Source of the DNA: an uncultured Eubacteriales bacterium
GTDB taxonomy: Bacteria > Bacillota > Clostridia > Peptostreptococcales > Anaerovoracaceae
NCBI GenBank assembly: GCA_902763505.1
Contig: CACWSO010000002.1
Span: 46,712 to 110,711, forward strand
Direction of reading: 5' to 3'
DNA: 64,000 nt
A model generated the notes under the pieces. That model ran no database searches. It was not told the origin of the DNA and was given only the letters and a program-made list of their open reading frames with translations. This document shows positions 8,469 through 47,342 of the stretch, one piece after another. The stretch's first letter is position 1. The number at the start of each line of letters is the position of its first letter. The position numbers and the translations under genes are program-made.

Positions 8469-8469
8469 A

Positions 8470-12252: not shown

Positions 12253-12281
12253 AAAGTGACTCGAATCAGCGGATTTGAGTC
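12245..12281 (-). terminator. probable intrinsic terminator of the minus-strand hypothetical gene
   Basis: A hairpin gactcgaatc-agcg-gatttgagtc (10 bp, one G.U pair) is followed on the minus strand by ACTTTTTATTT. Confidence 0.5.
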
Positions 12282-12325: not shown

Positions 12326-12339
12326 ATTAAATGCCCGGA

Positions 12340-29893: not shown

Positions 29894-30879
29894 TGTTCAG
29901 TCTAGTTGCTTTTATTCCTAGAGCCATACTGCAGGGAATGCCTCTCCTCTTCGGATGTACTGGCGAAACAATTTCAGAGAAGGCAGGAAGCCTCAACCTG
30001 GGTATTCCGGGCGTCATGTATGTCGGCGCGATCTGCGGCGTCATCGGCTCCTTCCTTTATGAGCAGAGCTGCGGAGGTCAGGTCGTTCCGATCATAGCGA
30101 TCCTGATACCATTCCTGGCGTGCCTCGCGGGCTCACTGATCATGGGACTGCTCTTTGCATTCATGACAGTATCGCTGAGAGCAAATCAGAACGTAGTAGG
30201 TCTGGCGATGACCACCTTCGGAATCGGATTCGGAAACTTCTTCGGCGGATCACTCATGAAGCTGACCGGAGCCTCTGTTCCATCCATCGCACTTTCAGCA
30301 ACCAGCAAATGCTTCAGAAAAGCGCTGCCGTTTGCAAATGACTGCGGTGCCTTCGGAAAGATTTTCCTTTCCTATGGATTCATGACATATCTGGCAGTTG
30401 CCATCGCAATCGTCACAGCGTTCATCCTAACGAAGACCCGCATCGGACTGCAGCTTCGTGCAGTAGGTGAAAATCCTGCGACGGCGGATGCTGCCGGAAT
30501 CGATGTTACGAAATATAAGTACTTCGCAATCTGCATCGGCTGCATGATTGCAGGACTTGGCGGACTGTTCTACGTGATGGACTATGCTAACGGCGTATGG
30601 TCGAACGACGCCTTCGGTGACAGAGGATGGCTGGCAATCGCCCTCGTTATCTTTACTCTGTGGAAACCGAACGTTGCAATCTTCGGATCCATACTCTTCG
30701 GCGGACTCTACATCCTGAACCTGTTTATCCCGGGTGCAGGAATGGCCACAAAGGAACTCTACAAGATGCTGCCGTACGTTGTAACGATCATCGTACTGAT
30801 TATCACTAGTATGAGACGCAAGCGTGAGCATCAGCCGCCGGAAAGCCTCGGACTGCCGTACTTCCGAGAAGACCGATGA
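29893..30879 (+). CDS. ABC transporter permease
   Basis: 328 aa polytopic protein. Its start overlaps the upstream stop (TAATG). Confidence 0.8.
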   Translation: MFSLVAFIPRAILQGMPLLFGCTGETISEKAGSLNLGIPGVMYVGAICGVIGSFLYEQSCGGQVVPIIAILIPFLACLAGSLIMGLLFAFMTVSLRANQNVVGLAMTTFGIGFGNFFGGSLMKLTGASVPSIALSATSKCFRKALPFANDCGAFGKIFLSYGFMTYLAVAIAIVTAFILTKTRIGLQLRAVGENPATADAAGIDVTKYKYFAICIGCMIAGLGGLFYVMDYANGVWSNDAFGDRGWLAIALVIFTLWKPNVAIFGSILFGGLYILNLFIPGAGMATKELYKMLPYVVTIIVLIITSMRRKREHQPPESLGLPYFREDR

Positions 30880-30914
30880 CGGTGCAAAGACTACAAAATC
30901 AATAATCAAAAATC

Positions 30915-30952
30915 ACCCGCAGGACGTGCTTGAGAGGGCACCTTCTGCGGGT
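30915..30952 (+). terminator. compound hairpin after the ABC operon
   Basis: acccgcag...ctgcgggt encloses an inner gtgc/gcac stem and is followed by a U/A-rich tail. It overlaps the addB promoter spacer. Confidence 0.4.
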
Positions 30953-30958
30953 TATAAT
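30930..30958 (+). promoter_or_regulatory. candidate sigma-A promoter TTGAGA-17-TATAAT placed 6 nt before the addB ATG (leaderless configuration)
   Basis: ttgaga at 30930-30935 and tataat at 30953-30958, with the ATG at 30965. There is no Shine-Dalgarno sequence in between. Confidence 0.45.
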
Positions 30959-30964
30959 TTAGTT

Positions 30965-33900
30965 ATGCTGAACATATACTATGCAGGCGAAGCCTGCGAC
31001 AAAGAAAAGTTCATATTCAACCACATTGATCCGGACGAGCAGACGATTATCATTGTCCCGGACCAGGCGTCCCTTCAGATGGAACGCGACGCGCTGGATT
31101 ACTTCAAAGGCAAGGATGGGCGCAGCGCACTCCTCGATCTTATGGTGGCCGACTTTTCTTCCCTTGGACACAAGGTCATCAGTGAAGCCGGCAGCAGGGA
31201 ACCGGAGCTCATCGACAAATACGGGCGTCAGATGCTGCTGTCTGTACTGATCGACAGGCTGGCGGATGACGGGGAACTGAGCGTGTACAAAACTATGAAG
31301 GGCAAGAGCACCTTCGTCTCGAACACCAACCAGCTCATCTCCGAGATGAAACGATACGGCGTGTCCGCGTCCGATATCGAACAGGCGGCAGGAGAGACGG
31401 ACAGCTACCTGCAGCTCAAGCTGTCGGACATCAACACGATTTATAAAGCCTACGAAGATTCCATTCTAGACCGATTTACGGACTCAGAAGACTACATCAG
31501 ATTCTACGGCAAACTGATGGAGGAGTCTGAGCTAATCAAAAAATCTGTCATCTGGATTACAGGATTTGATACATTTACCCCAGTCAATATGGAAGTCATC
31601 CAGCGGCTTCTCGCAGCAGCGCGAGAGGTCAATGTTGTGATGACCTGGGAAGATGCTGCAGGCACAGCACCGCTGGACGCCAGAGTGCTGACGACAGGCG
31701 GCGGCGAAGGCCTCTTCAGTCTAACGGGTATGGTGATAGAGACTCTTCAGAATGCGGCAGATGCGGCGGGCGTGAAATGGAAGAAGCAGCCGGTGGGTGC
31801 CGAACTCAGAGAGAGTATCTGGAACGAAGACCCGGCGGCAAAGATAACACTCATCAAGACTTCGAACATCTATGCGGAGGCGGACAGAGCGGCCGCATGC
31901 ATTACGGAACTCGTTCGCGATCAAGGATATCGATACAAAGACATTGCCGTCATTTGCAACGACATGGATGTGCGCGGCGGCGTTTTGATGCGGACCTTTG
32001 AGCGGTGGGGCATTCCTGCCTTTGCAGACAGAAAGCGGAAGGTGCTGCATCAGCCGGTTGTCCGGTTTTTGCTGTCATTTCTAGATGTGATTTCCGATGG
32101 ATTCGGCGGCAGCGCAGTCATGGAAATGGTCAGCGCTGGTCTGATGGGGTTCAGCCGCAGGGATGAAGAACTGCTGAGCAACTATGTGACCGAGGCGAAA
32201 ATCCGCGGAAGCAAGTGGAAGCAGCCATTCACCTGGACCGGAAAAGGCAGCTTCGGCGGAGCCCGCTACGAAGAGGAACTGGAGCGCCTGAATGAGATGC
32301 GTAGCTACATTGTCAGCGTTGTGGAAGAGGCACGGGATGAAATCGGACGCAGAAATAATGCAGAGGAAAAAATCCGCGGCATCACGAGATTTCTGGAGGA
32401 GAAGTTCGATATTCTGGAAAGAATCGAGGAACTGATCACCAGGCAGAAGGAGCTCGGACTAGCAGAAGGCGCAGCGGAAGCAGCGCAGAGCTGGAATATG
32501 ATCTGCGGTGTTTTCGCGCAGGTGATCCGAGTCATCGGCGAAGATACGATCAGCAACAAACAGCTGAAAGATATCCTGACAGAAGGCTTAAGGGAAATGG
32601 AGATCGGTCTTGTACCGACGAGCACAGACAGCGTACTGCTCGGCACATTGCAGAGAACGAGAATCAGCAAGTGTCCTGTCCTCATCGTCACGGCGGCGAA
32701 TGAAGGCGTCCTGCCGATGAGCGGCGGTGACAGCGGACTTCTGACAGAACGGGAACTGGAAAAGCTGGAGCAGCTCAAATACAGCATTGCCAAGAAAGAC
32801 GATGTGAGGAGACAGGAGGAACAGCTTGCGATTTACAGGATGTTCTCATTACCGTCTGAACGACTGATTGTGATGTGCAGCATGTCCGATCAGGACGGCA
32901 GAAGCATCACCCCTTCAAGTGTCTTCTCAGTCCTCGAAGATCTGGAAGGCGTTCAGGTATTCGGTGATTTGGGAAAAGAAGAAATCACAGAAAAAATCGC
33001 TTCGCGCAAAGGCTCCCTCGCCTATATGGCGGACGCCATGCAAGGATTCATAGAGAACGGACGTATTGATGAGGCGTGGCTCGCCGCCATGAACTGGTAT
33101 CGCGCGAAGGACTCCGACAGCGTGCGGAAGATTCAGCAGGGACTGGATTTCGATAACAGAGCGGAACAGCTAGAGGAAGATTTTGCAGACAGCCTCTACT
33201 TCGGAGACCGTGATTCCATCAACGTCAGCGCCAGCAGGCTGGAAGTGTATAGCAGCTGCCCGTTCCGGTACTTTATCGAGAGAGGGCTCAAAGCAGATGA
33301 ACCGGATAGTTATGAGACATCCGGAAAATCCAGAGGCGATGTCTTCCACATGGCGCTGCAGAAGCTATCGGCGCAGCTTGCGGAAGAGGCTGAAGCGAAT
33401 CATTTTGCGGTGACAGATCCGCAGTCCCCTTGGATGACGATTACAGAGGAAGAGTGCCGCCGGCAGATCGACGAGATCATCCGCGAGGAGACGTCGGACT
33501 ATCGGGAAGGCGTGTACCTGAGCGATAACGAAGCCCGCCTGCAGCTGGAACAGATCATCAGCACCTGTTCCGATATCGCATGGGCCATGATTGGTCAGGT
33601 GCGCAAAAGCAACGTGACACGGATGTATTTCGAGGAGCCGTTCGGCTATGGAGCCGCCAGACTTAAGCCGATTGAAATCGAGCTCGAGAGCGGCAGGAAA
33701 GCCGTACTCTCCGGCATCATCGACAGATTGGATGTGATGGACGTGTCGCCGGCAGACACCGCAGCGGATGCCGCTACCGCCACCGATGATACAACCGAAC
33801 CGGCCGATGCCACCGCTGACGGCACCAACGACGTTGCCACCGAGGCAATCCGCGTCATCGACTACAAGACCGGAAGCGATGAGATCAATCTCGATCAGAT

Positions 33901-34450
33901 CAAAGAAGGATACAAGCTGCAGCTCATGGTCTACATGAACGCAGCAGGATCCGCAAACATCAGCGCCGGCGAAGACCTGAAACCGGCAGGTGTGTTTTAC
34001 TTCAAGATCAAGGATCTGGATGACAATGCGGATACAACGTCCGGAAGCAAAGACCTGGGCGAGAACATTGACGACAGGATCGCGAAAGCCTGCAGGCTGG
34101 AGGGCATCATGGTCGGCGATGAACAGATTCTGAAAGCCATGGATGGAACCATCGCGCCGAAGGAGACGAGCAGAGTACTGCCTTTGCAGCAACTGGCGTC
34201 CGGCGAGCTGAAGACGCCGAAGAGCGGAGCCCTCCTTGCACCGGATGAGTTTGATGAGCTTTGTAATATTACAATGGACAATGTCAGAAGCATCTGCCGG
34301 GATATCCAGTCCGGCCGCATCGATATTGCCCCGAAAAAAGAGAAGTCTTCGTCGGGCGGTTGGACGAAAACTTCATGTACGTACTGTTCCTACAAGAGCA
34401 TCTGCCTCTTTGACACCAGCTTCCGAAACTGCAGGTATAAGCTGGTATAG
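30965..34450 (+). CDS. addB: helicase-exonuclease AddAB subunit AddB (RexB-like, degenerate Walker A)
   Basis: 1161 aa. The N-terminus MLNIYYAGEACDKEKF..IIVPDQASLQME is present. The nuclease motif is GIIDRLD...IRVIDYKTG. The Fe-S cysteines are SSCPFRYF and CTYCSYKSIC. The 47-aa track extension overlaps the permease gene. Confidence 0.8.
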   Translation: MLNIYYAGEACDKEKFIFNHIDPDEQTIIIVPDQASLQMERDALDYFKGKDGRSALLDLMVADFSSLGHKVISEAGSREPELIDKYGRQMLLSVLIDRLADDGELSVYKTMKGKSTFVSNTNQLISEMKRYGVSASDIEQAAGETDSYLQLKLSDINTIYKAYEDSILDRFTDSEDYIRFYGKLMEESELIKKSVIWITGFDTFTPVNMEVIQRLLAAAREVNVVMTWEDAAGTAPLDARVLTTGGGEGLFSLTGMVIETLQNAADAAGVKWKKQPVGAELRESIWNEDPAAKITLIKTSNIYAEADRAAACITELVRDQGYRYKDIAVICNDMDVRGGVLMRTFERWGIPAFADRKRKVLHQPVVRFLLSFLDVISDGFGGSAVMEMVSAGLMGFSRRDEELLSNYVTEAKIRGSKWKQPFTWTGKGSFGGARYEEELERLNEMRSYIVSVVEEARDEIGRRNNAEEKIRGITRFLEEKFDILERIEELITRQKELGLAEGAAEAAQSWNMICGVFAQVIRVIGEDTISNKQLKDILTEGLREMEIGLVPTSTDSVLLGTLQRTRISKCPVLIVTAANEGVLPMSGGDSGLLTERELEKLEQLKYSIAKKDDVRRQEEQLAIYRMFSLPSERLIVMCSMSDQDGRSITPSSVFSVLEDLEGVQVFGDLGKEEITEKIASRKGSLAYMADAMQGFIENGRIDEAWLAAMNWYRAKDSDSVRKIQQGLDFDNRAEQLEEDFADSLYFGDRDSINVSASRLEVYSSCPFRYFIERGLKADEPDSYETSGKSRGDVFHMALQKLSAQLAEEAEANHFAVTDPQSPWMTITEEECRRQIDEIIREETSDYREGVYLSDNEARLQLEQIISTCSDIAWAMIGQVRKSNVTRMYFEEPFGYGAARLKPIEIELESGRKAVLSGIIDRLDVMDVSPADTAADAATATDDTTEPADATADGTNDVATEAIRVIDYKTGSDEINLDQIKEGYKLQLMVYMNAAGSANISAGEDLKPAGVFYFKIKDLDDNADTTSGSKDLGENIDDRIAKACRLEGIMVGDEQILKAMDGTIAPKETSRVLPLQQLASGELKTPKSGALLAPDEFDELCNITMDNVRSICRDIQSGRIDIAPKKEKSSSGGWTKTSCTYCSYKSICLFDTSFRNCRYKLV

Positions 34451-34465: not shown

Positions 34466-35578
34466 TCACTGCGTGAGGAGGAACCACTGTGCGGCAGCGT
34501 AGAGACGGATCATATCCCGGCTCACACGGAGATCCAGGCCGGTCAGATCCCGGATGCGTTTGATTTTATACTGAACCGTATTTTTATGAATAAAGAGCTT
34601 TCGCGCGATTTCATTGATGGAACCGTTGCATTCGAAGTATGAGAGAATGAACGGAACAATATCTTCAATCGTATGAAGATCCACATCATCGAAGACGAAC
34701 GCAGTGAAAGCTTTTTTTGTGTCCGCAGGAATCTGGTTCATGATGATATTCAGGACATAATCCTCATAGAGCTCAATGCCCTGATACTTCTGGCCAAGGG
34801 ATTTGCTGCGGATCTTTACATACTGCAGCAGCGAGAATGCGTGGTTGTAAGATCTGTTGAGCAGGTTTTCATCTTCAACGGTGTCGCCGACGGCGAAGAA
34901 GTAGTCATCCCGGTCCGGCATATCCGCCAGCAGCTTCTCAAGAAAGTTTCTCATTTCTGCGGATGAATCGAACATTCCGATGATCGTTCCGTAGGAATTG
35001 TTCCATGTGGTGACAGTGCGGGCGTGCTTTACCTTCTCGCGCAGAAAAGAACGGGCGACATCGTGGCCGTTGATATTATCAATGACGACGACCTGAAATG
35101 TGGAAAAAGAAGCACATCCATACTGTTCCAGTTTTCTCTTTAACCGGGTGCTGTCTGAGATACCGCCGTTCATCCAGCTGTTGAGGAAGGACATACGAGC
35201 TTCGTCCAACCGCGTTTTCTCCGAAAGTGCAGCGTAGTCTTTGAGCAAAATCTCCGCCGTCTTTTTGATGATATTCGCGTACTTCGATGTCTCGTTCACA
35301 TCGCCGGTAATTCCGACAACACCAATGATCTCATCATCAACGATGAGCGGAACATTGGTGCCTTCCTTGCAGCCGCTGTATTCATTGTCATAGTGGACGA
35401 GAAGGGACGGAAGATTCTCGTTGATGATCAGGAGCGCAGCCTCATGAAACTGTCCGATTCTGCTGGGGTCTGTGCTGGAGATGATGATGCCTTCCTCATC
35501 CATGATGTTGAGATTGTATTCTATGACAGAATGCAGTTCGCTGATCAGAGCGCTGACCGTTTCGGTGCCCAGTTTCAT
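34466..35578 (-). CDS. CdaR/PucR-family transcriptional regulator (sugar diacid regulator-like)
   Basis: 370 aa. The N-terminus IMDEEGIIISSTDPSRIGQFHEAA..IIGVVGITG matches the diacid recognition domain, and the C-terminus is a PucR-type helix-turn-helix (NTVQYKIKRIRDLTG). Confidence 0.85.
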   Translation of the reverse strand: MKLGTETVSALISELHSVIEYNLNIMDEEGIIISSTDPSRIGQFHEAALLIINENLPSLLVHYDNEYSGCKEGTNVPLIVDDEIIGVVGITGDVNETSKYANIIKKTAEILLKDYAALSEKTRLDEARMSFLNSWMNGGISDSTRLKRKLEQYGCASFSTFQVVVIDNINGHDVARSFLREKVKHARTVTTWNNSYGTIIGMFDSSAEMRNFLEKLLADMPDRDDYFFAVGDTVEDENLLNRSYNHAFSLLQYVKIRSKSLGQKYQGIELYEDYVLNIIMNQIPADTKKAFTAFVFDDVDLHTIEDIVPFILSYFECNGSINEIARKLFIHKNTVQYKIKRIRDLTGLDLRVSRDMIRLYAAAQWFLLTQ

Positions 35579-35697
35579 TATTTGCCCTTCCTTTATTACA
35601 TGTACTAAAAAATACCCATAAATTCAGTTAGAAAACACATATCTTTAAGTGCTCTATAACAGTATACTATATTCAGCAAAAGCAGTGAAGTGTAATT

Positions 35698-36867
35698 ATG
35701 AAAAAATGTATCATTATTCCCGACTCCTTTAAGGGGACAATGACATCGGTTGAGGTCAGCGAAATCATGGCCGAAGCTGTCAAAAGGCACGATCCGGACT
35801 GCGAGATCGTCACGATTCCAATCGCAGACGGCGGAGAAGGCACGGTCGATTGTTTCCTCAGAGCGGAGAAGGGTGAAAAAGTAAATATAAAGGTAAGCGA
35901 TGCCTACGGCAAAACCATCGAAGGCTTTTACGGTCGCTTCGGTGATACGGCTGTCATTGAGATGGCAGCAGTGGCCGGCATGGTCAGCAACACACGCAGG
36001 GATACTCTCGAAGCATCCACTTACGGCGTCGGACAGATCATCGCCCACGCTATCAATAACGGCACTAAAACCATCCTCATCGGGCTGGGCGGGAGCTGTA
36101 CTTCGGACGCCGGCTGCGGCATGGCGGCGGCCCTGGGCATGAAATTCTACGATAAACACGGCACACAGTTCGTACCGACCGGCAGCACTTTGCACAAGGT
36201 TGCAAAAGCATCAAGAACGGAAATCGATAAACGCCTGGAGGGCATCCGCGTTTGCTGTATGTGCGACACCAACAAAGTCATGTATGGACCGGATGGCGCA
36301 GCTTACGTATACGCACCGCAGAAGGGTGCGACGAAAGAGCAGGTGAGGATTCTCGATGAGAATCTCAGAACTTTCGCCGACCTCATCAAAAGAGATCTGG
36401 GCATCGACGTTTCAACCATCCCGGGCGGCGGCGCAGCAGGCGCCATGGGCGCAGGTGCAGTCGCGTTCATGAACGCAGAACTGAAACCCGGCATCGAATA
36501 CATCATGGATATGGTCAAGTTCGACGAACAGCTCGAAGATGCTGACTGCGTCTTCACCGGGGAAGGCAGCTTCGACATGCAGAGCATGAGCGGCAAAGCT
36601 GTCTACGGCGTCGCTTCCAGAGCGAAGCGGCACAATGTACCGGTCATCGTCATCGCCGGCAGAAACAAGAACGGCACACACGACCTTTCGGAAGTCGGCA
36701 TCACAGCCGTATACGAAACTGCAAACTCCGAAAATTTCGAGGAAATCAAGCGGACCTGCAGAAACGACCTCGCTTCTACGATGGACAAAGTCCTTGAAGA
36801 AATAAATGTAACATTATCATTATTTGAACAACAGAAAGGAGGAGGGTGTTTTCACACCAATGATTAA
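35698..36867 (+). CDS. glycerate kinase (GlxK/GarK family)
   Basis: 389 aa. IIIPDSFKGTMTS...PIADGGEGTVD...GGGAAGAMGAG. Confidence 0.88.
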   Translation: MKKCIIIPDSFKGTMTSVEVSEIMAEAVKRHDPDCEIVTIPIADGGEGTVDCFLRAEKGEKVNIKVSDAYGKTIEGFYGRFGDTAVIEMAAVAGMVSNTRRDTLEASTYGVGQIIAHAINNGTKTILIGLGGSCTSDAGCGMAAALGMKFYDKHGTQFVPTGSTLHKVAKASRTEIDKRLEGIRVCCMCDTNKVMYGPDGAAYVYAPQKGATKEQVRILDENLRTFADLIKRDLGIDVSTIPGGGAAGAMGAGAVAFMNAELKPGIEYIMDMVKFDEQLEDADCVFTGEGSFDMQSMSGKAVYGVASRAKRHNVPVIVIAGRNKNGTHDLSEVGITAVYETANSENFEEIKRTCRNDLASTMDKVLEEINVTLSLFEQQKGGGCFHTND

Positions 36868-36869
36868 CA

Positions 36870-38471
36870 ATGAGTGAAAATAATGGTTTGAAGAAAAACA
36901 AAATCGGCATTTTCGGTGTCATCGGAATGATCTACGCGATGACAGCAGCCGGAGCCTATGGTATCGAAGACATGGTATCATCATCCGGTCCGGGAATGAC
37001 AATCATCATGCTGTTTGTACTCCCACTGTTCTGGGCATTCCCAATCGCACTTTCATCAAGTGAGCTGGGTTCTGCGATCCCGGAAGAATGCGGATACTAC
37101 AAATGGGTTCAGAGAGGTCTCGGTGAGTACTGGGGCTTCCAGGTGGGCTGGCTTAAGAACGTTGGTATCTTCATCAACAATGCAGTATTCGTAGTACTTG
37201 CAGGAGATTACGTTGCCTCTTATCTGCACATGTCAGCAGTCACAGGCTATATGTTCAAGGTAGTCATCATCCTGATCTTCATGATTATCAACCTGGTCGG
37301 CGTCAAAGAGGTTGCTGTTGTCAGCACGATTATTTCCGCGTTCATTGTTGTTGCTTTCGCGGGAATTGCCGTCATCGGATTCACACACATGAACTACAGC
37401 CCGTTCGAGCCGGTCGTTGCAGAAGGACAGACTGTCGTAAGCAGCATCGGTGCTTCCATCGCCATCGGCATGTGGATGTACGCTGGTTATGAGACCATGT
37501 CATCCCTGGCAGGCGAGCTCGAGAATCCGCAGATCATCCCGAAAGGAATCATCCTGGCGCTGCCGCTCATCATCGGAACATATGTTATCCCGACGATCGC
37601 CGGTGTCGGCAGTGTTGGTCAGTGGGAATCATGGGGATCCGACGGTGTATCCTACATCAACGTTGCACTGCAGTATGCGCCTGCATTTGCAGTACTGTTC
37701 GTAACCGTTGCCTTTGCGTCAAATATCTCCATGTTTAACGTATACCTGGCAACAGGCGCCAGAAACTTCTGGATCGTTGCAGAAGACAACCTCTTCCCGA
37801 AGTTCCTGAGCAAGGTTGGCAAGAGATTCGGAACTCCATACGTTACAATCATCGGTCTTTCACTGGTATCCATCGTGCTCTGCGCTCTGAAGTTCGATGC
37901 GCTCGTAACTGCAGTTGCACTTCTGAACATGGGCTTCTACTCACTGATTCTGATCTCACAGATCGTGCTGAGAAAGAAAGAGCCGGATCTTCCTAGACCT
38001 TTCAAAATCAAGCTGGGCGGAGATACCGGAAATATGATCTTCTGCGCTATCCCTATCGCAGTTGCATTTATCGCACTTTACATCAACGGAACAGACTACT
38101 TCGTAGGCGGACTTCTGGCTATGTGCTCAGGTCCGGTTGCATACATGATCTTCAAGCCTATGTTCGGCGGTCTGTTCAAGAAGGATCCGGAGAAGAATCC
38201 TATCAACCTGAAGACCAAGTTTGCAGCAGGAGACATGAGAAGAATCGCATTCTCATTCGCGCTTATCGGCGTACTGTTCCTCATCGGAAGAGTATTCCTG
38301 CCATGGTACGAAGATCCTGCATACTATATTGACATTTACTCAAGCCCGACTATCTTCGATACATTCATGAACGTAACACTCATTGGCGGTATCGTATGCC
38401 TGATCATCGGACTGGTATTCCTGCTGATCGGCAACAAGGTAGAAAAAGAAGAGAACTACTCAAGAGGTTAA
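36870..38471 (+). CDS. APC-superfamily amino acid/organocation permease
   Basis: 533 aa with about 12-14 transmembrane helices and a 2-nt gap from the kinase gene. Confidence 0.8.
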   Translation: MSENNGLKKNKIGIFGVIGMIYAMTAAGAYGIEDMVSSSGPGMTIIMLFVLPLFWAFPIALSSSELGSAIPEECGYYKWVQRGLGEYWGFQVGWLKNVGIFINNAVFVVLAGDYVASYLHMSAVTGYMFKVVIILIFMIINLVGVKEVAVVSTIISAFIVVAFAGIAVIGFTHMNYSPFEPVVAEGQTVVSSIGASIAIGMWMYAGYETMSSLAGELENPQIIPKGIILALPLIIGTYVIPTIAGVGSVGQWESWGSDGVSYINVALQYAPAFAVLFVTVAFASNISMFNVYLATGARNFWIVAEDNLFPKFLSKVGKRFGTPYVTIIGLSLVSIVLCALKFDALVTAVALLNMGFYSLILISQIVLRKKEPDLPRPFKIKLGGDTGNMIFCAIPIAVAFIALYINGTDYFVGGLLAMCSGPVAYMIFKPMFGGLFKKDPEKNPINLKTKFAAGDMRRIAFSFALIGVLFLIGRVFLPWYEDPAYYIDIYSSPTIFDTFMNVTLIGGIVCLIIGLVFLLIGNKVEKEENYSRG

Positions 38472-38477
38472 GCTAAC

Positions 38478-39866
38478 ATGAAAAGAAACAATCACGCAAG
38501 ATCCTGCGATTCCATGATCGCAGCAGCTCCTGCGTCAGCTACAGGCAACATCATCTATGCCAAGAACAGCGACAGGCCTCTGAATGAAGCCCAGCCTCTC
38601 GTATACTTCCCGCCGGCAGACCACGAGCCCGGCGAGATAGTACAGACCAGCTTCATTAAGGTTCCGCAGGTGGCACATACATATGGCGTCATCGGCTCCA
38701 AGCTGGACACGTTCTTTGGCTGCGAACACGGCATCAATGAGTGGGGTCTGGTCATCGGCAACGAGCAGGTTTCCGGCAAGGAGATCCCGGAACGCAGATG
38801 GGGTCTCATCGGCATGGACATCCTGAGACTGACTCTGGAGCGTACAAAGACAGCCCGCGAGGCAATCGACTGCATCGTCGATCTCCTCGAGACATACGGA
38901 ACAGGCGGCGACCCGACCGTCAGAATCCCATACTTCAACACGAATCTGATCATTGCTGACCCAAATGAGGCATACCAGTTTGAATCCCATCAGAGAGATT
39001 GGGTCTGCAAAAAAATCGAGAAGACCGGCGCCATCGGAAACTGCTATTCCATCCAGGAATATGACATGATCAGCAAAGACGCAGTCAAGAACGCAGTTGA
39101 AAACGGCTGGTGGGCGGAAGGCAAACCGTTCAACCCGGCACGCGCATGGTCACCTTCTGATCATATGTGGGATGAGGATGAAGGTTTCGTCAGATACGGA
39201 CGTATCGTGGAACTCATGAACAGACACGACAAGTACACGGTTCCAATGATGATGAACAACCTGAGAGACCACTACGAAGATGTGCCTGCACTGCAGACCA
39301 TCTTCAGCCCTGCGATTCCGAAGATCGGAACCGTATGCTGCCATCCGGGCGGACTGGACGGATGCATCACCTCGGCCAGCATGGTCGCTGAGCTGAGAAA
39401 GGACGCGCCGGAAGAACTGCGCTTCACCGCATGGACTTCCATGGCTCCTCCTTGCTGCTCCATCTTCAGACCGATCTTCAACACAGGCAAGCTGCCTCCT
39501 GCCATGAGCGGTGCAGGCAACATGTACGATCCGTCAGAGAACTGGTGGACCTTCATCGAGCTGGAGAGATATCTCTCCCTGTGCTTTGAGGATCAGGCTC
39601 CGCGCGTCAAGGCAGACTTCGCAGCAATGGAGAAAGCCTTCATCGAGGAAGAAGCTCATATCGTCAAGACATACAACGGCGACGTTTCTGTACTCGACGA
39701 GTTCTCCGCAAGAGCCGTCAAGGAGAGCTACGACCTGGCAAGAACCCAGATCGAAAGAATCAAAGCGGAACTCCGCACCGTCGACATCGACCGTCTGGCC
39801 CTGGACTACTTCACAGGTGTCTGCGACCAGTGCGGCATGCCGTACGATAAAAATATAATCAGATAA
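38478..39866 (+). CDS. peptidase C69 / secernin-like Ntn hydrolase
   Basis: 462 aa. RSCDSMIAAAPASATGNIIYAKNSDRP resembles the C69/secernin N-terminus, with the Cys nucleophile following a short propeptide. Confidence 0.7.
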   Translation: MKRNNHARSCDSMIAAAPASATGNIIYAKNSDRPLNEAQPLVYFPPADHEPGEIVQTSFIKVPQVAHTYGVIGSKLDTFFGCEHGINEWGLVIGNEQVSGKEIPERRWGLIGMDILRLTLERTKTAREAIDCIVDLLETYGTGGDPTVRIPYFNTNLIIADPNEAYQFESHQRDWVCKKIEKTGAIGNCYSIQEYDMISKDAVKNAVENGWWAEGKPFNPARAWSPSDHMWDEDEGFVRYGRIVELMNRHDKYTVPMMMNNLRDHYEDVPALQTIFSPAIPKIGTVCCHPGGLDGCITSASMVAELRKDAPEELRFTAWTSMAPPCCSIFRPIFNTGKLPPAMSGAGNMYDPSENWWTFIELERYLSLCFEDQAPRVKADFAAMEKAFIEEEAHIVKTYNGDVSVLDEFSARAVKESYDLARTQIERIKAELRTVDIDRLALDYFTGVCDQCGMPYDKNIIR

Positions 39867-39927
39867 TAGTAAATATGACGAAAGTAGCATGTTGTTGCAT
39901 GCTGCTTTTGTCATAGAAGGAGAAACT

Positions 39928-42231
39928 ATGAACAAAGTTGGATTTATAGGTCTCGGAATCATGGGACGTCCCATGGCGCTGAATCTCGTCAAAGGCGGCG
40001 TTGATCTGTACGTCAACGACATCGATCCGGCCGCAGTTAACGTCCTTACCGATGCAGGTGCAAAGGCAGCAGATTTGGCTGCGATCGGTCGTGAATGCGA
40101 CATCATCATCACGATTCTTCCAAACGGCGAGATCGTGAAAGACGTGCTGTTCGGAGCGAACGGACTGCAGCTCAAACCGGCAGCCAGTTCACCTGGCGCG
40201 CGCCGCGTCGTTTGCGACATGAGCTCCGTCACCCCAGTGGATTCCAGATTTTGCGAAGCGAAACTCGCAGAGCTCGGCATCGGTTTTGTGGACGCCCCGG
40301 TCAGCGGGGGAGAGCCGAAGGCCATCGACGGAACCCTGGCAATCATGGCCGGCGGAAGCCAGTCGGACTTCGACGCCCTCGTGCCGTACTTTGAAATCAT
40401 GGGCGACAGCTGGACCCTCGTCGGAGATTCCGGCTGCGGCAGCATCGCCAAGCTCGCTAACCAGGCCATCGTCAACATGACCATCGCGACCGTCGGCGAG
40501 GCTTTTGTATTAGCCTCAAAAGCAGGCGCGGATCCGCGCAAAGTCTACGAAGCCATCCGAGGAGGACTGGCGGGAAGCGCTGTGCTTGATGCAAAAGCAC
40601 CGATGATGATCGAGCGCAACTTCAAACCGGGTGGCAAGATTTCCATCAACCAGAAAGATATCAACAACGTCATGGCGACGGCAAAAGAACTGAAGGTCCC
40701 AATGCCTCTCGCCGCACAGCTGTCCCAGATCATGCAGTGGATGGATGTACACGACAATCTGAATGACGACCACGCAGGACTTGTGAAGTACTTCGAGGCA
40801 CTGGCAGATTGCGAAGTCGCCGCACCAGATGCTACTAAGGCAACCGCTACCTGTGATGCCACCACGGCCTGTGGCGATAGCGCTACCGACCCCGCAGACA
40901 TCGGCAAGACGATTGTCGTTCTCGACGACGACCCGACGGGAACCCAGACGGTCCACGACATCACCGTCTTCACCACATGGGAGACAGAGGAACTCGAAAA
41001 AGGACTGCAGGATGAAAAAGGTCTCTTCTATGTGCTGACCAATTCACGCGCCATGTCAAAAGAGACGACTATCGCAGTCCATAAGGAAATCATGAAGAAC
41101 CTGATCGAAGCGTCCAAACGCACAGGCAGGGATTTCTTAGTCATCAGCAGGAGCGACTCCACCCTGCGCGGGCACTTCCCGATTGAGACGGAAGTCATCC
41201 GCGAGTGCCTGGAAGAGGGTACCGGCGTCAAAGTCGACGGCGAATTCCTTTGTCCGTTCTTCCTGGAAGGCGGCAGGTTCACCATTGATGACATTCACTA
41301 CGTCAAGGATGGCGACCAGCTGATTCCGGCAGCGGAAACAGAGTTCGCTCGTGATGAAGTGTTCGGATACACGAAATCCAATCTCAAAGAATACATCGAA
41401 GAAAAAACCGGCGGCGCCTACAAAGCCTCAGATGTGATCTCCATCGGCCTCGATGAGATCCGCAGCGGCGATGTTGCCGGCATCGAAGAGAAACTCATGG
41501 GCGTGCACGATTTCCAGAAGGTGATCGTCAATGCCGAGACATACGACGATCTCGCAGTTTTTGCAAAAGCATTCAAGCAGGCTGTCAAAAACGGCAAGGT
41601 CTTCATCGGCCGTACTGCGGCGTCCATCGTCAAAGTTCTGGGAGGCGTTTCGGACCAGCCGCTGCTCACCAAGGCTGACATGTGCCCGGGCAAAGCCGAG
41701 ACCAGAGGCGTTGTCATGGTCGGCTCCTACACAGAGAAGACCACCCGCCAGATCGAAGCCGCCAGAGTCATTCCGCAAGTAGAGTGCATTGAATTCAATT
41801 CGCACACCGTCGGCTGCGACGTTTACTTCCCGTGCGAGATCAACAAGGCGGCGGCCAAGGCAGACGAAGCCATGCGTCAGGGAAAGACAGCTCTGATCTA
41901 CACGAAGAGAGAGCGCCTTTGCTTCGACGACGACTCAAAGGAAGAAATCCTCGCCCGTTCCGTCAAGATTTCGGAAGGCGTCAAGACCATCGTCGAAAAG
42001 CTCCAGGAGCGTCCTGACTTCATCATCGCCAAGGGCGGCATCACCTCCAGCGACATCGCGACAAAGGCCATGGGCATCAAGAGCGCGACCGTTGCCGGTC
42101 AGATCAAACCGGGCGTGCCCGTCTGGAAGAGCAGGGAAGACAATCGTTTCAAAGATATCGCCTACGTCATCTTCCCGGGCAACGTCGGAAACGACGACAC
42201 ACTGAAAGAGATCATAGAAGAGCTGCTGTAA
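39928..42231 (+). CDS. fusion protein: beta-hydroxyacid dehydrogenase (GarR/LtnD/HIBADH-like) plus four-carbon acid sugar kinase (DUF1537/OtnK-DtnK family)
   Basis: The N-terminus MNKVGFIGLGIMGRPMALNL is a Rossmann fold continuing to about residue 290. A Thr/Ala/Asp-rich linker follows. TIVVLDDDPTGTQTVHD then starts the DUF1537 domain. ATG 39928 follows a GAAGGAG ribosome-binding site. Confidence 0.75.
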   Translation: MNKVGFIGLGIMGRPMALNLVKGGVDLYVNDIDPAAVNVLTDAGAKAADLAAIGRECDIIITILPNGEIVKDVLFGANGLQLKPAASSPGARRVVCDMSSVTPVDSRFCEAKLAELGIGFVDAPVSGGEPKAIDGTLAIMAGGSQSDFDALVPYFEIMGDSWTLVGDSGCGSIAKLANQAIVNMTIATVGEAFVLASKAGADPRKVYEAIRGGLAGSAVLDAKAPMMIERNFKPGGKISINQKDINNVMATAKELKVPMPLAAQLSQIMQWMDVHDNLNDDHAGLVKYFEALADCEVAAPDATKATATCDATTACGDSATDPADIGKTIVVLDDDPTGTQTVHDITVFTTWETEELEKGLQDEKGLFYVLTNSRAMSKETTIAVHKEIMKNLIEASKRTGRDFLVISRSDSTLRGHFPIETEVIRECLEEGTGVKVDGEFLCPFFLEGGRFTIDDIHYVKDGDQLIPAAETEFARDEVFGYTKSNLKEYIEEKTGGAYKASDVISIGLDEIRSGDVAGIEEKLMGVHDFQKVIVNAETYDDLAVFAKAFKQAVKNGKVFIGRTAASIVKVLGGVSDQPLLTKADMCPGKAETRGVVMVGSYTEKTTRQIEAARVIPQVECIEFNSHTVGCDVYFPCEINKAAAKADEAMRQGKTALIYTKRERLCFDDDSKEEILARSVKISEGVKTIVEKLQERPDFIIAKGGITSSDIATKAMGIKSATVAGQIKPGVPVWKSREDNRFKDIAYVIFPGNVGNDDTLKEIIEELL

Positions 42232-42251
42232 GCAGCGATAGAGGAATCATT

Positions 42252-43859
42252 ATGAAAGCAGTTTTTTACAATGGAAAAGTTCTCGTCAGCGCAGACAAAG
42301 GCTTCAAGGATTACGTCGTGATCAACGGCAACAAAATCGAAGAAGTCGGCGATGATTTCGACCCGAGCCGTTTCGCCGGCTATGACCTGGTAGACCTCGA
42401 CGGGAAAATGCTCATGGCGGGCTTCACCGACGCCCATGCGCATCCATTCACATCGGCATTCCAGATGTCGCAAATCAACATCAATTACGAATCCGACCCT
42501 ACCGGCGTAATCGAAACCGCCAGAGAATATATCGAAAAGCACCCTAATAAAGAGAAATTCTTTGGCATCGGTTACGCCGAAGTAGGGTTCGGCATAGAAG
42601 GACCGAACCGGCACATGCTTGACGCGATCTGCCCAGACAAACCAGTCATCCTCGTCGGCGCATCCGGCCACGAAGCATTTGTAAACACAGCGGCGCTCAA
42701 AGCATGCGGCATTGATGAGAACACACCGGATCCAATCCCCGGAACCCAGTTCTTCAAACGCGACGAGACTGGTTACCCGACCGGCCACCTGATCGAAAGC
42801 GGGCCAATCACACAGGTCGTGCTCGGTCTGCAGCCTTTCGTCATCGAAGAAGCGAAGGAGACCCTCCTGAAGATTTTCGATGACTTTGCGAGCTACGGCA
42901 TCACATCCATCGACGACTGCGGTTTCATCCCGTATCTGAAAGAGCCGGCGGAAGAGCTGCTCGATGAGATGATTGCCAGCGGCCAAATGAAACAGCGCAT
43001 CTTCGGCAGCAACCACATCAACTGCCTGGAAGAAGCTGACGCTTGGGAAGAGTACCTCAACCACATGCGTGACAAATACGACACCGATATGGTGCGTTAC
43101 AACACGTTCAAAATCATCAACGACGGCATCGTCGAGGCCTGCAGCGCCAGCATGACGGAACCCTTTGAAGGCCATGACGAGCTCGTCATGCCTTTGATCT
43201 ACGGCGAAGACCTCCGCAACATCTGTGTGAAGGCTGCGTCGGAAGGCTTCGACGTACACCTTCATGGAATCGGCGACAACACCGTCCACGAAAATCTGCT
43301 TGCTGCAAAGGCAATCCGCGACGCTGGCTACGACGATACAATCATCACCATCGCCCACACCCAGTGCGTGCTTGAAGAGGACATCCCGAAGTTTGCAGAG
43401 TACGATGTCATCGCCAACACCACCGGCGTTTGGCACTATGGAGACCCTGCAGCATACGATCTCATCGGCAAACGCGCGGACCGCATGTTCCCGATGTACA
43501 GCATCATCAAATGCGGCGCCAAGATGAGCCTGGGCAGCGACTTCCCTGGTGATGAGTACGGCCCGCAGCCGCTCAACTCCATCGAAACCGCAACCACACG
43601 CCAGATGCTCGGAGATCCGGATTCCCCGATCCTCCAACCGGAATCAGAGCGCCTGCCGATGGACGAACTCATCAAAGGCTTCACCGAAACCGCCGTCTAT
43701 CAGGTCCGCATGGACGACAAACTCGGCACCATCGAACCGGGCAAATACGCCGACTTCATCATCCTCGACCAGAACCTGTACGAAGTCGACCCATACGAAC
43801 TCCGCAACGTCAAAGTCTGCATGACAGTGATGAACGGGGAGGTCACCTATCAGGCGTAA
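42252..43859 (+). CDS. metal-dependent amidohydrolase (amidohydrolase-3 / YtcJ-like)
   Basis: 535 aa. It has the GFTDAHAHPF HxH motif, HLHGIGD and a C-terminal GSDFP. Confidence 0.8.
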   Translation: MKAVFYNGKVLVSADKGFKDYVVINGNKIEEVGDDFDPSRFAGYDLVDLDGKMLMAGFTDAHAHPFTSAFQMSQININYESDPTGVIETAREYIEKHPNKEKFFGIGYAEVGFGIEGPNRHMLDAICPDKPVILVGASGHEAFVNTAALKACGIDENTPDPIPGTQFFKRDETGYPTGHLIESGPITQVVLGLQPFVIEEAKETLLKIFDDFASYGITSIDDCGFIPYLKEPAEELLDEMIASGQMKQRIFGSNHINCLEEADAWEEYLNHMRDKYDTDMVRYNTFKIINDGIVEACSASMTEPFEGHDELVMPLIYGEDLRNICVKAASEGFDVHLHGIGDNTVHENLLAAKAIRDAGYDDTIITIAHTQCVLEEDIPKFAEYDVIANTTGVWHYGDPAAYDLIGKRADRMFPMYSIIKCGAKMSLGSDFPGDEYGPQPLNSIETATTRQMLGDPDSPILQPESERLPMDELIKGFTETAVYQVRMDDKLGTIEPGKYADFIILDQNLYEVDPYELRNVKVCMTVMNGEVTYQA

Positions 43860-43894
43860 GAGCTTAAACGCAAACAACGAAACTAAGACAATAT

Positions 43895-43925
43895 AAACAG
43901 AGAGGCCAACAGCCTCTCTGTTTTA
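43895..43925. terminator. bidirectional intrinsic terminator between the convergent amidohydrolase and ybaK-like genes
   Basis: The stem aaacagagaggc/gcctctctgttt is flanked by an A-run and a T-run. Confidence 0.8.
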
Positions 43926-44766: not shown

Positions 44767-45900
44767 CTATTCTTGCATCTCCTCTATGAGCTCATCGATG
44801 TCGTTATACTGATAGGTTTCATCAGTATTGACTGTCTGAGATGAATCATTGGTAGTGCCAATCGTGAAGAAGTATATTATACCTGCAATTACGAATAATG
44901 CAATAATAATAGCAAAAATTCTAATGGCTTTTTTCAGTCTGCTCTTCTTGAGGGCTGCTTCTTCTGCCTTCGCGATATCCTCTGCTGTTTCAGCAGCAGG
45001 TTCCTCGGCCTTCGCGGCTTCTTCTGCCTTTTCTGCCTCAACAACAGGCTCTGCCGGTTTCTCTGCTTCAGCAGTTTCTGCGACTTCGGCTACCTCTGCC
45101 GGAACTTCCGCTGGCGCTTCTTCTGCCTCAGGGAGTTCGAGTTTCGGTTCTGCTGCCTCAGGGAGCTCAGCTTCCGGGATCTCGACTGCCGGTGGCTCAA
45201 CCGCTGCAGGTTCTTCCGGAACCTCTACCGCAACCGGTTCAACCTTAGGTTCCTCTGCGACAGCTTCCGCCGCAGCTGGTTCCGCAGGTTTCTCAACCTC
45301 TGCTGGTTTCTCAACTTCAGCCTCAGCCTTAGGCTCCTCAACCGGTTTCTCAGCAGGCTTTTTCTCTGCTTCCGCAGCTTTCTTTTTTCTAGACCAGAAC
45401 TTCGGCTTTTTCTCTTTTACAGGCTTCTCGGCCTTAGCAGGTTCCGCCGGCTTTTCTTCCTTCGCCGCTTCTTCCGCCTTCGTCTCAGCCTCAGCCGCAG
45501 GTTTCTCAGCCTCCGCTGCCTTCTCAGCTTCAACATCAACCGCCTCGGCCTTCGCCTCAACCGGCTTCCCCACCTTCGGCTCCGCCTTCACATCCTCGCC
45601 AGCCAACGCCGCTGCGATGGCAGCTGTGTCGATGGACTGGGTTGCACGCGCCTGCATCGCACGGCGGGCGTTCATCGCATTGATTCTCTTGAAGAGCGCT
45701 GCGATAGTCTTGCCCTGCTGCGGATCCTCGTAGAACAGCTTTACCCATTCGCCCTTGTAGCGGAATAGGAATGCTTTGTACGCCGAGGAGTGCTTGACCT
45801 GGCTGATTCCCGTATAAGAGTATACCTCGTGATCTATTGTCAGCGTCCGTTTGGAAAACTCGACGCTGTGTCCTTTCGCATTAAATTTGATCGACTCCAT
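44767..45900 (-). CDS. hypothetical membrane-anchored protein with a long Ala/Glu/Lys/Pro-rich low-complexity region
   Basis: 377 aa. It has a roughly 85-aa globular N-terminus, about 230 aa of AEKP repeats (including an 18-bp tandem at 45284-45319), one C-terminal transmembrane helix and an acidic tail. The stop lies 32 nt upstream of tRNA-Thr. Confidence 0.6.
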   Translation of the reverse strand: MESIKFNAKGHSVEFSKRTLTIDHEVYSYTGISQVKHSSAYKAFLFRYKGEWVKLFYEDPQQGKTIAALFKRINAMNARRAMQARATQSIDTAAIAAALAGEDVKAEPKVGKPVEAKAEAVDVEAEKAAEAEKPAAEAETKAEEAAKEEKPAEPAKAEKPVKEKKPKFWSRKKKAAEAEKKPAEKPVEEPKAEAEVEKPAEVEKPAEPAAAEAVAEEPKVEPVAVEVPEEPAAVEPPAVEIPEAELPEAAEPKLELPEAEEAPAEVPAEVAEVAETAEAEKPAEPVVEAEKAEEAAKAEEPAAETAEDIAKAEEAALKKSRLKKAIRIFAIIIALFVIAGIIYFFTIGTTNDSSQTVNTDETYQYNDIDELIEEMQE

Positions 45901-46052: not shown

Positions 46053-46121
46053 AGTGTATCAAAATGCGATTATTTGTAATTATACAGTTTATTATTGCAA
46101 TTTAAAAGAGGAACAAACAAA

Positions 46122-47342
46122 ATGGATAAGAGTGCTTTAAAAGACAAAAGACGTGAGACCGTTATCGGACTTCTGAAGGGAATGAACATCAAGAAAGATT
46201 CTGATGGTGGATTCGACAAAGATGATGTCTACGGTTGCATTCAGGAACTGTGCAACCTCTACGAAGAGCACATTGATGAGCTCGAGAACAACTATGAAGC
46301 TGAAATCTCCGAACTGACCAAGAGATATCAGAAGTATGACGAGAACAATGAATTGTACGTCAGCCTGATCCTCGAAGCGAAGAAGAGCAGCAATGAGATC
46401 ATCAACCAGGCAAAGACAGAAGTCGACGAGATTCTCAGAAACGGTAAGGAAAAGATCCAGGAGCAGGAAGAGCAGATGGAACAGTTCCGTATCGACAGCG
46501 AGAAGGAGAGAGATTCCGTCCTGGCTGATCTGAAGGCAAGCAAGGAAGTTGCAGACGCCGAGAAGGCTGCCATGAAGGTTGAGCTGGAAGCTGAGAAAGA
46601 GAAACTCGAAGCGACAAAGAACAAATACAGACAGCAGGTTGCAGCGATGGAAGATGAATTCGCTGAGATCAGAACCAACATTCTCAGAACATCCGCTAGA
46701 CTGGACAGCCTGAAGGCGCAGACAGAAGAGATGGCACCTTCCGTAGACTGGGAAGTTGACGAAGATGAAACAGCCGTTGAAGTTCCAACAGCAGACATCG
46801 AAGTAGATGAGTTCGCTGAGATCGAACTTCCGGAGGAGCCTGTAGAAGCAGCTCCTGTAGAAGAGCCGGTAGCATTTGAGGAACCAGTCATTGAAGAGCT
46901 TCCGGAAGAACCGGTAGAAGTTGCAGCAGAGGAGCCAGTCGAAGCACCGGCAGAAGAAGCAGCACCAGCGGAAGACCTCTTTGCAGATGCATTCTTCAAG
47001 GATGAACTCTTCGCAGACGCTCCGAAGGAAGAAGGAAACGTTGCAGCAATCGAAGAGGCACTCGCTGAAGCACCGGCAGAGGCAGCAGAAGCAGCACCTG
47101 CAGTAGAGCACGAGGCAACTGTGGAAGAACTGCTGGCAAGCATGGACGCTCTGGCAGACGATCTCCCAACTGAGGACCTCGGCGAAAAGGCAGCTGGAGC
47201 CGCTGAAGATGTAGATGCAATGCTCGATGAGATCTCATTCGACGACCTGATCGACGAAGGCGCAGAGAAAGTTGCAGAAGCTGCACCTGCAGAGGAAATC
47301 TCATTTGACAGCCTCGAAGCACTTTTCAAAAATGAACAGTAA
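46122..47342 (+). CDS. DivIVA-domain-like coiled-coil protein with an acidic Ala/Glu/Pro-rich C-terminus
   Basis: GGFDKDDVYGCIQELCNLYEEHIDELE resembles the DivIVA N-terminal motif (GYDxDEVDEFLD). A coiled-coil middle and an AEP-rich tail follow. ATG 46122 follows an AGAGGA ribosome-binding site. Confidence 0.5.
   Translation: MDKSALKDKRRETVIGLLKGMNIKKDSDGGFDKDDVYGCIQELCNLYEEHIDELENNYEAEISELTKRYQKYDENNELYVSLILEAKKSSNEIINQAKTEVDEILRNGKEKIQEQEEQMEQFRIDSEKERDSVLADLKASKEVADAEKAAMKVELEAEKEKLEATKNKYRQQVAAMEDEFAEIRTNILRTSARLDSLKAQTEEMAPSVDWEVDEDETAVEVPTADIEVDEFAEIELPEEPVEAAPVEEPVAFEEPVIEELPEEPVEVAAEEPVEAPAEEAAPAEDLFADAFFKDELFADAPKEEGNVAAIEEALAEAPAEAAEAAPAVEHEATVEELLASMDALADDLPTEDLGEKAAGAAEDVDAMLDEISFDDLIDEGAEKVAEAAPAEEISFDSLEALFKNEQ

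Follow-up and report, generated by a model that had tools for sequence, protein, structure and literature searches.

What does a clostridial bacterium do with a CdaR-type regulator, a glycerate kinase (GlyK), an amino-acid-type permease, two different amide hydrolases and a dehydrogenase fused to a DUF1537 kinase, all encoded side by side? The question arises from a locus at positions 34466-43859 of a 64-kb stretch of contig CACWSO010000002.1, from an uncultured Eubacteriales bacterium of the Anaerovoracaceae; this whole stretch of 64,000 nucleotides (nt) is called the window below. The initial annotation took the locus for a single CdaR-controlled six-gene unit. Comparison with other genomes divides it in two: the conserved CdaR-linked unit has four genes, encoding CdaR, a C69-family hydrolase, a transporter and GlyK (module A), whereas the dehydrogenase::DUF1537 fusion and an Amidohydro_3 protein belong to a second, GntR-linked module (module B). 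The interpretation proposed here, to which a probability of about 0.4 is given, is that small N-(hydroxyacyl) conjugates would be imported and their amide bonds cut, after which glycerate would be converted to phosphoglycerate by GlyK and a four-carbon (C4) acid would be led toward dihydroxyacetone phosphate (DHAP) by the fusion. Domain assignments, invariant catalytic residues, the arrangement of the operon and recurrent neighbourhoods are its observed basis, and all later steps are inferred from these.

The four-gene unit was delimited by a survey of C69 neighbourhoods, in which a profile of 13 homologues recovered 80 loci (one genome per species) and neighbours were counted by tblastn and clustering of called open reading frames (ORFs). 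The core set comprises 29 loci with a C69 protein at least 43% identical, from Anaerovorax, Lentihominibacter, Zhenpiania, Hominibacterium, Brotomerdimonas and various Clostridia metagenome-assembled genomes (MAGs); Anaerovoracaceae and other Clostridia make up most of the set. Cultured bacteria with module A include Anaerovorax odorimutans, Lentihominibacter hominis, Zhenpiania hominis and Hominibacterium faecale. A glycerate kinase (40-51% identity) is encoded within a few kilobases of the C69 gene (43-58% identity) in 24 of these 29 species-level genomes, and two of the five exceptions are truncated contigs. Eighteen of the 29 have a CdaR homologue (29-54% identity) beside the C69 gene, mostly divergent from the operon, and 13 of the 18 were extracted as divergent CdaR-operon pairs; in L029 the CdaR homologue lies downstream on the plus strand. 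An orthologous APC permease (66-71% identity) adjoins C69 in 14 related genomes, which makes 15 of the 29 when L010, a goat-jejunum Bacillota MAG of the same species as the window with a 99% identical C69 gene, is included. The usual order is CdaR on the minus strand followed divergently by C69, transporter and GlyK, with gaps down to 5-22 nt. Where the APC permease is absent, the slot between C69 and GlyK is filled by an NhaC-type carrier or by an SSF symporter with a protein of 218 amino acids (aa). Such non-orthologous displacement of the transporter (APC, NhaC-type or SSF), with hydrolase and kinase retained, is typical of a substrate-defined catabolic operon. The C69-like clade is small (166 clusters at E <= 1e-10), and distant C69 homologues (22-34% identity, many phyla) have no neighbours in common.

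Two further features of module A loci were recorded. The SSF symporter is always preceded by the conserved protein of about 218 aa, which has no Pfam match (L012, L018, L019, L023 and L038). In L025-L027, GlyK is followed on the same strand by genes for a TetR protein, an FGGY kinase (530 aa) and a class II aldolase/adducin-type protein, which may be an analogous addition to module A made up of a small-sugar-acid kinase and a decarboxylase or aldolase.

The C69-like protein of the window passes PF03577 (41.2 bits against a gathering score of 23) and misses the C69 dipeptidase equivalog NF033678 (50.4 against 250 bits). Its Cys10 and a KNSDR motif are invariant in the alignment of 13 homologues. 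An AlphaFold model (predicted template-modelling score 0.81; mean pLDDT 72) has as its best Foldseek match the Lactobacillus farciminis C69 dipeptidase 5iau/5img, with a template-modelling (TM) score of 0.65, an E value of 1e-17 and about 15% identity; the next structural matches are bile-salt hydrolases, penicillin V acylase, NAAA and isopenicillin-N acyltransferase (AAT). The protein is thus predicted to be a Cys-type N-terminal nucleophile (Ntn) amide hydrolase, resembling N-acyl-amide hydrolases with an N-terminal Cys. GlyK matches PF02595 with 431 bits, covering profile positions 2-370 of 372, and TIGR00045 with 392 bits (cut-off 168); it scores below the 2-kinase and 3-kinase equivalogs (270 of 686 and 310 of 625 bits, respectively). 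The permease matches AA_permease_2 (136 bits) and no NCBIfam equivalog.

The regulator contains a Diacid_rec domain (PF05651, 126.5 bits) and a PucR helix-turn-helix domain (HTH_30, PF13556, 66.4 bits), both above the Pfam gathering scores. CdaR of Escherichia coli responds to glycerate, and the pairing of CdaR with GlyK, which is centred on glycerate, counts in favour of the proposed interpretation. The divergent region between regulator and operon holds only weak sigma-70-like matches and no RNA structure beyond that of shuffled sequences. A conserved CdaR operator was sought and discarded as a candidate, since the 7-mers common to 11 orthologous CdaR-operon intergenic regions are no commoner than in shuffles.

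Module B begins with the fusion, which unites NAD_binding_2/11, SBD_N and NBD_C domains in one 767-aa protein. The longest version of its ORF starts at 39889, and the likely start is the ATG at 39928, which lies behind a GAAGGAG ribosome-binding site and puts the NAD-binding domain at residue 3. The dehydrogenase half scores just below the cut-offs for tartronate semialdehyde reductase (GarR/GlxR; PRK11559, 376 of 397 bits; TIGR01505, 305 of 340.75 bits), and its best match in the PDB is 1vpd (268 bits). The kinase half belongs to the DUF1537 family by its SBD_N (PF07005, 172.9 bits) and NBD_C (PF17042, 113.1 bits) domains, and within it to a longer subfamily of about 440-475 aa that falls far below the DtnK, OtnK and OiaK equivalogs (57 of 450, 38 of 350 and 26 of 700 bits). 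Solved DUF1537 structures are matched in phmmer searches with E values of 0.07 and 0.83; transfer of specificity from them was attempted and dropped, because only a C-terminal motif aligns. Bacterial fusions of this type are rare (five clusters among the best 120 matches) and their neighbours vary between PdxA, a cyclase-family hydrolase with MIP, and an FMN oxidoreductase, with the exception of one that is 96% identical. Unfused pairs are common, the dehydrogenase being 59-72% and the DUF1537 kinase (462-476 aa) 54-63% identical to the respective halves. The full length of the fusion can be aligned with fungal proteins of about 1100 aa (34-35% identity), some of which carry the names YgbJ or class-II aldolase family.

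The Amidohydro_3 protein (PF07969, 236 bits in Pfam) retains a metal site of HxH (H62, H64), K287, H338, H369 and D430 that is invariant in 15 homologues. Its nearest PDB entry, 3icj, is an uncharacterised protein, and it has no close characterised relative. Known members of the YtcJ-like Amidohydro_3 family, such as the N-substituted formamide deformylase NfdA and D-aminoacylases, hydrolyse N-acyl C-N bonds. When metagenomes were scanned with the amidohydrolase profile, only three of 80 loci proved close; most of the proteins recovered were environmental YtcJ-like ones of about 30% identity that had no neighbours in common. The clade itself is found largely in the same bacteria as the DUF1537/dehydrogenase pairs.

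In other genomes module B, that is, a GarR-like dehydrogenase, a long DUF1537 kinase and the Amidohydro_3 protein, stands under a GntR regulator, and it often occurs with M24 hydrolases, amino-acid-type permeases or PdxA. Homologues of the amidohydrolase (51-78% identity) adjoin DUF1537 kinases in five architectures, including that of the window. In L090-92 a GntR gene is followed by dehydrogenase, DUF1537, Amidohydro_3 (78%), APC permease (83%), C69 (49%) and GlyK (48%) genes; in L093-95 and L180 the order after GntR is M24-M24-APC-dehydrogenase-DUF1537-Amidohydro_3; L096-97 have M24-M24-Amidohydro_3-NhaC-PdxA-DUF1537-M24, and L181 has M24-Amidohydro_3-PdxA-DUF1537. Genes for M24, Amidohydro_3 and NhaC proteins are also found in L098 and L182, with no DUF1537 kinase on the contig stretch retrieved. 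PdxA lies beside DUF1537 in the related loci L001, L096 and L181. These neighbourhoods tie the amidohydrolase clade to C4 acid-sugar routes, amino-acid-type transporters and further amide hydrolases. Among the latter, Creatinase_N/M24 hydrolases, often paired, recur beside the clade (L093, L096, L180, L181 and L182), and L181 additionally carries genes for a zinc-dependent alcohol dehydrogenase, a split transketolase, an AP_endonuc_2 protein and a 2-hydroxyacid dehydrogenase.

The dehydrogenase/kinase pair also occurs in a Lachnospiraceae cassette composed of GntR, dehydrogenase, DUF1537 and a GntP acid permease (L003-L006, at about 8988-12754 in each), which looks like an uncharacterised two-enzyme acid-sugar route. 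Because the pair occurs with a GntP acid permease, its substrate would be a free carboxylate. In none of the loci examined was the Amidohydro_3 clade seen beside GntP. The GntR regulators of L003, L090 and L093 are 46-55% identical to one another. The cassette, with a 474-aa kinase, is widespread in human-gut Lachnospiraceae and has no OtnC, OtnI or PdxA nearby; one 474-aa kinase sequence is indexed in 224 contig-collection blocks, of which 24 contigs were read.

The neighbourhood comparison that the initial annotation had proposed shows that its genes do co-occur in other genomes, in the two groups described. Modules A and B are adjacent only in the window's species and, rearranged and unfused, in L090-92; among the 29 core loci, a dehydrogenase, DUF1537 kinase or Amidohydro_3 gene is found beside module A only in L010. 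Descent of the six genes as one ancestral unit is ruled out by the module A loci that lack module B, including a relative with a 79% identical C69. The window and L090 encode the same five structural functions and differ in gene order, in regulator (CdaR versus GntR) and in the fusion of dehydrogenase and kinase; their identities are uneven, high for the APC permease and Amidohydro_3 and far lower for C69 and GlyK. The association has thus persisted, or arisen anew, despite rearrangement, which favours a functional link over a single accident. In the window, module B has neither a transporter nor a regulator of its own.

The layout of the window locus is given in Table 1. Its gene content and tight packing are as originally described: six ORFs fill the locus, all domain calls are upheld by Pfam and NCBIfam, and the intergenic gaps, measured again with the fusion start at 39928, are the same 2, 6, 61 and 20 nt. 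The strong terminator likewise proved to be a hairpin far more stable than shuffled sequences (-20.5 kcal/mol, z = -5.5), with a stem of 12-13 base pairs (bp; 13 pairs in the scan) followed by TTTTAAAGCTTTG, a T-run; this 3' end is the only terminator-like site of the operon. A second hairpin, missed at first, occupies the 61-nt gap between the modules. It has a 19-bp stem, a 4-nt loop and no U-tract, folds at -29 kcal/mol (z = -7.5; none of 200 shuffles folds as well), and its stem is identical in three same-species assemblies (L007, L008 and L010), with one loop change. It may serve RNA processing or stability or act as an attenuator, or it may be an insertion scar. A single transcript over 35698-43859 may exist, as favoured by the short gaps and the single 3' terminator-like site, while the junction hairpin casts doubt on it.

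Table 1. Features of the CdaR-associated locus, in window coordinates
Feature	Position	Strand	Remarks
CdaR/PucR-family regulator, 370 aa	34466..35578	-	Divergent from operon
Divergent promoter/operator region, 119 nt	35579..35697		Sequence read directly
Class I glycerate kinase (GlyK), 389 aa	35698..36867	+	PF02595, TIGR00045
APC-superfamily amino-acid-type permease, 533 aa	36870..38471	+	AA_permease_2
Divergent C69-family (secernin-like) N-terminal-Cys hydrolase, 462 aa	38478..39866	+	PF03577
Intercistronic hairpin, 19 bp, junction of modules A and B	39874..39915	+	Folding versus shuffles
Dehydrogenase::DUF1537 fusion, 767 aa	39928..42231	+	GarR-like dehydrogenase at residues ~1-300, long DUF1537 kinase at ~330-767
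Amidohydro_3 (YtcJ-like) metallo-amidohydrolase, 535 aa	42252..43859	+	PF07969
Terminator hairpin, common to operon and convergent ybaK-like gene	43895..43923		Folding versus shuffles

The initial annotation had also suggested that an amide conjugate is taken up, deacylated and passed through kinase and dehydrogenase steps into lower glycolysis, and this scheme fits the neighbourhoods now found, in which C69 accompanies GlyK and CdaR, and Amidohydro_3 accompanies DUF1537 and amino-acid-type transporters. In module A, the APC permease would bring in a small conjugate, zwitterionic or anionic, made of glycerate joined through an amide bond to an amine or amino acid; the C69-like hydrolase would free D-glycerate, the presumed acyl product, and GlyK would convert it to phosphoglycerate. 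Release of glycerate from an amide is suggested by the constant partners of the hydrolase, namely GlyK with a diacid/glycerate-type regulator and an importer of amino acids or small organic ions, with no dehydrogenase or aminotransferase. The effector of CdaR is likely to be glycerate or the conjugate itself. In module B, Amidohydro_3 would deacylate a related conjugate bearing a four-carbon, tetronate-type acid. The fusion of dehydrogenase and DUF1537 kinase implies consecutive reaction steps, which could be 3-oxidation followed by 4-phosphorylation, or the reverse, yielding a 3-oxo-4-phospho acid. This would decarboxylate to DHAP, the putative end product; this is the net chemistry of OtnK/OtnC or DtnK/PdxA2.

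Several observations weigh against this proposal. The two modules are usually apart in the genomes examined, and the contig with the 79% identical C69 encodes CdaR, divergent from APC-C69-GlyK, and nothing further. The very stable hairpin that parts the modules raises doubt over co-transcription of module B and its control by CdaR. As the initial annotation had stated for OtnI, OtnC and PdxA2, domains that could complete a known C4 route (Aldolase_II of OtnC, AP_endonuc_2 of OtnI, and PdxA) are absent: none turned up when the 53 main ORFs of the 64-kb window, a set without the smaller ORFs, were scanned. Of the two halves of the fusion, the dehydrogenase scores higher with the model of a C3 enzyme, tartronate semialdehyde reductase, than with that of L-threonate dehydrogenase (376 versus 166 bits), and the kinase has diverged so much from characterised DUF1537 kinases that homology gives no guide to its specificity. 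The need for two or more different amide hydrolases is also unaccounted for. Finally, the C69 orthologues of L015, L016 and L021 (56-57% identity) lie beside an NCS2 xanthine/uracil-type permease without GlyK and CdaR, so that the C69 family may not always act on a glycerate conjugate. These three loci (C69 at 3595-4980, 10001-11386 and 2234-3619, respectively) also encode a metallo-beta-lactamase-fold protein and a calcineurin-like phosphoesterase; Brotomerdimonas butyrica is an example of a host in this group.

The alternative that survives best, though doubtful, is that modules A and B handle different substrates and share neither import nor chemistry, their adjacency being an insertion accident. 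It would account for the separation of the modules in nearly all genomes examined, for the GntR regulator and transporter that module B has of its own elsewhere, and for the position of the 19-bp hairpin at the A/B junction; the closest bacterial homologues of the fusion, moreover, lie in unrelated contexts (PdxA, the cyclase with MIP, the FMN oxidoreductase). It does not sit well with a module B that in the window lacks a transporter and a regulator of its own, nor with the assembly of the same five structural functions a second time in L090-92, in another order and unfused. The repeated linkage of the Amidohydro_3 clade to amino-acid-type permeases and other amide hydrolases, and not to GntP, in the loci examined also counts against it.

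It is unlikely that the locus serves peptide catabolism, in which the APC permease would take up peptides containing serine, threonine or hydroxy amino acids, C69 and Amidohydro_3 would cleave them as dipeptidases, and enzymes encoded elsewhere would turn the amino acids into glycerate or C4 acids. The closest solved structure to the C69-like protein is indeed a true cysteine dipeptidase, M24 hydrolases (prolidase/creatinase-type) accompany the Amidohydro_3 clade in five architectures, and Anaerovoracaceae and relatives, the clade of the host, live by fermenting amino acids. However, the C69-like protein reaches only 50 bits against the 250-bit dipeptidase cut-off and shares only 15% of its residues with the solved enzyme; the cargo of APC permeases is amino acids and amino-acid derivatives, not peptides; and no conserved module contains an aminotransferase, dehydratase or deaminase that would link an amino acid to glycerate or tetronate.

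Very unlikely is a cyclic amide or oxidised nucleobase as substrate (for example, a hydroxylated dihydropyrimidine or hydantoin), whose ring Amidohydro_3 would open and from which the Ntn hydrolase would strip a carbamoyl or amide group to give tartronate semialdehyde, reduced by the GarR-like domain to glycerate for GlyK: a dehydrogenase half near the GarR equivalog (376 against 397 bits; 1vpd) and paired with GlyK as in allantoin and glucarate routes, the three NCS2-linked C69 orthologues, and four loci with pyrimidine-nucleoside phosphorylase and Bmp nucleoside-binding genes upstream of CdaR all agree with it, but it leaves the DUF1537 kinase fused to that dehydrogenase without a role, in 23 genomes module A manages with no dehydrogenase, GlyK is missing from the NCS2-linked loci, and the nucleoside genes are on the far side of CdaR in four related genomes only.

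A more specific form of the conjugate hypothesis, salvage of the amide glycation adducts N-epsilon-glycerinyl-lysine and N-epsilon-threonyl-lysine from dietary or host protein, is the least likely of the possibilities considered. The APC permease would import the acyl-lysines, C69 would free D-glycerate for GlyK, Amidohydro_3 would free L-threonate for the fusion, and the lysine would be fermented. This fits the combination of C3 and C4 acyl groups and amino-acid-type uptake, and nothing in the sequence is specific to lysine. Both adducts exist, glycerinyl-lysine arising from glucose degradation or from dephosphorylated 3-phosphoglyceryl-lysine and threonyl-lysine from ascorbate degradation. 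According to a review, no mechanism by which enzymes degrade threonyl-lysine is known (PMC8116961).

The GC content of the cluster (0.47-0.58) does not depart from that of its flanks and gives no signal of horizontal transfer. Flanking genes are housekeeping ones (a pur operon, metK, secA, prfB, a nucleoside ABC transporter, addB, the ybaK-like gene, cysS, thyA and folA). The AddB-type helicase-nuclease gene (30824-34450, 1208 aa) has no adjacent addA, and the cluster begins 16 nt past its stop. At the other end, L010 has about 1.7 kb more than the window between the amidohydrolase stop and the common terminator hairpin (15479-17170 in L010), including a 338-aa minus-strand ORF; the corresponding site in the window is 43860-43894. 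The purine-biosynthesis operon (54-12252) encodes a PurO-type IMP cyclohydrolase (PF07826, 5192-5938) beside a separate AICARFT-only protein (5978-7162), and includes an FTCD_C cyclodeaminase-domain gene (1383-2042). Four ORFs of 209-415 aa, at 44767-45900 (minus strand), 46095-47342 (plus), 12331-13503 (plus) and 62997-63626 (minus), have no significant Pfam match, the best hint among them being a weak DivIVA match (E 0.003) for 46095-47342.

If the conjugate hypothesis is correct, the DUF1537 kinase family, whose known ties are to free sugar acids alone, would be linked to amide hydrolases and amino-acid-type importers, and a class of gut-bacterial nutrients would be defined, the amide conjugates of glycerate and C4 hydroxy acids, for which no catabolic route was found in the literature searched. 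It would also provide first physiological roles for the bacterial secernin-like C69 clade, for the YtcJ-like amidohydrolase clade, and for the widespread long DUF1537 subfamily with its GarR-like dehydrogenase in Lachnospiraceae and other human-gut Clostridia. Because the modules are small and the enzymes soluble, the hypothesis is directly testable in vitro.

Known systems resemble the locus in part. The E. coli CdaR (SdaR) regulon (garD, garPLRK, gudPXD) likewise places a regulator with Diacid_rec and PucR-type helix-turn-helix domains beside a class I GlyK and a GarR-like reductase. In contrast, the window operon has no sugar-acid MFS or GntP permease, and neither a GarD/GudD dehydratase nor a GarL aldolase is encoded in it or among the other scanned ORFs; an Ntn hydrolase and an amino-acid permease stand in for the sugar-diacid enzymes, and the regulator, with 113 bits, lies below the 612-bit cut-off of NF008550, the equivalog model for E. 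coli CdaR. With the C69 dipeptidases (Lactobacillus PepD/PepDA; 5iau) and eukaryotic secernins, the window hydrolase shares the Ntn fold and a conserved GKNSDR motif, and, as in the dipeptidases, a short propeptide precedes the nucleophile Cys (Cys10 here; the title of 5img names a C9A mutant). It differs from them in its low identity to 5iau and in its clade's partners, which are GlyK and CdaR and not peptide transporters. YtcJ-like Amidohydro_3 hydrolases have the same domain and HxH...K...H...H...D metal site as the window protein, whose clade stands apart from the characterised members.

The DUF1537 pathways (LtnD/DenD-OtnI-OtnK-OtnC for L-threonate and D-erythronate, DtnK/DenK-PdxA2 for D-threonate and D-erythronate) likewise combine a beta-hydroxyacid-type dehydrogenase with an SBD_N/NBD_C kinase, and they include an Ltn3D bypass among the four-carbon acid-sugar routes (PMC12994016). 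Fused L-threonate proteins of plants and fungi have the same domain order as the window fusion, and one published account (PMC12540250) describes the plant L-threonate protein as containing all three pathway domains. The window differs from the described pathways in the longer kinase subfamily, which barely matches the solved structures, in a dehydrogenase half closer to GarR than to LtnD, and in its link to amide hydrolases and amino-acid-type permeases, which is absent from them. The literature searched holds no description of the cluster, of a module joining C69 to glycerate kinase or of a link between amide hydrolases and DUF1537; the occurrence of the Amidohydro_3 clade beside DUF1537/PdxA and M24 genes is likewise undescribed. 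The parts belong to known superfamilies and the logic of import, hydrolysis and phosphorylation is conventional, whereas the combination and the substrate class that it implies are new.

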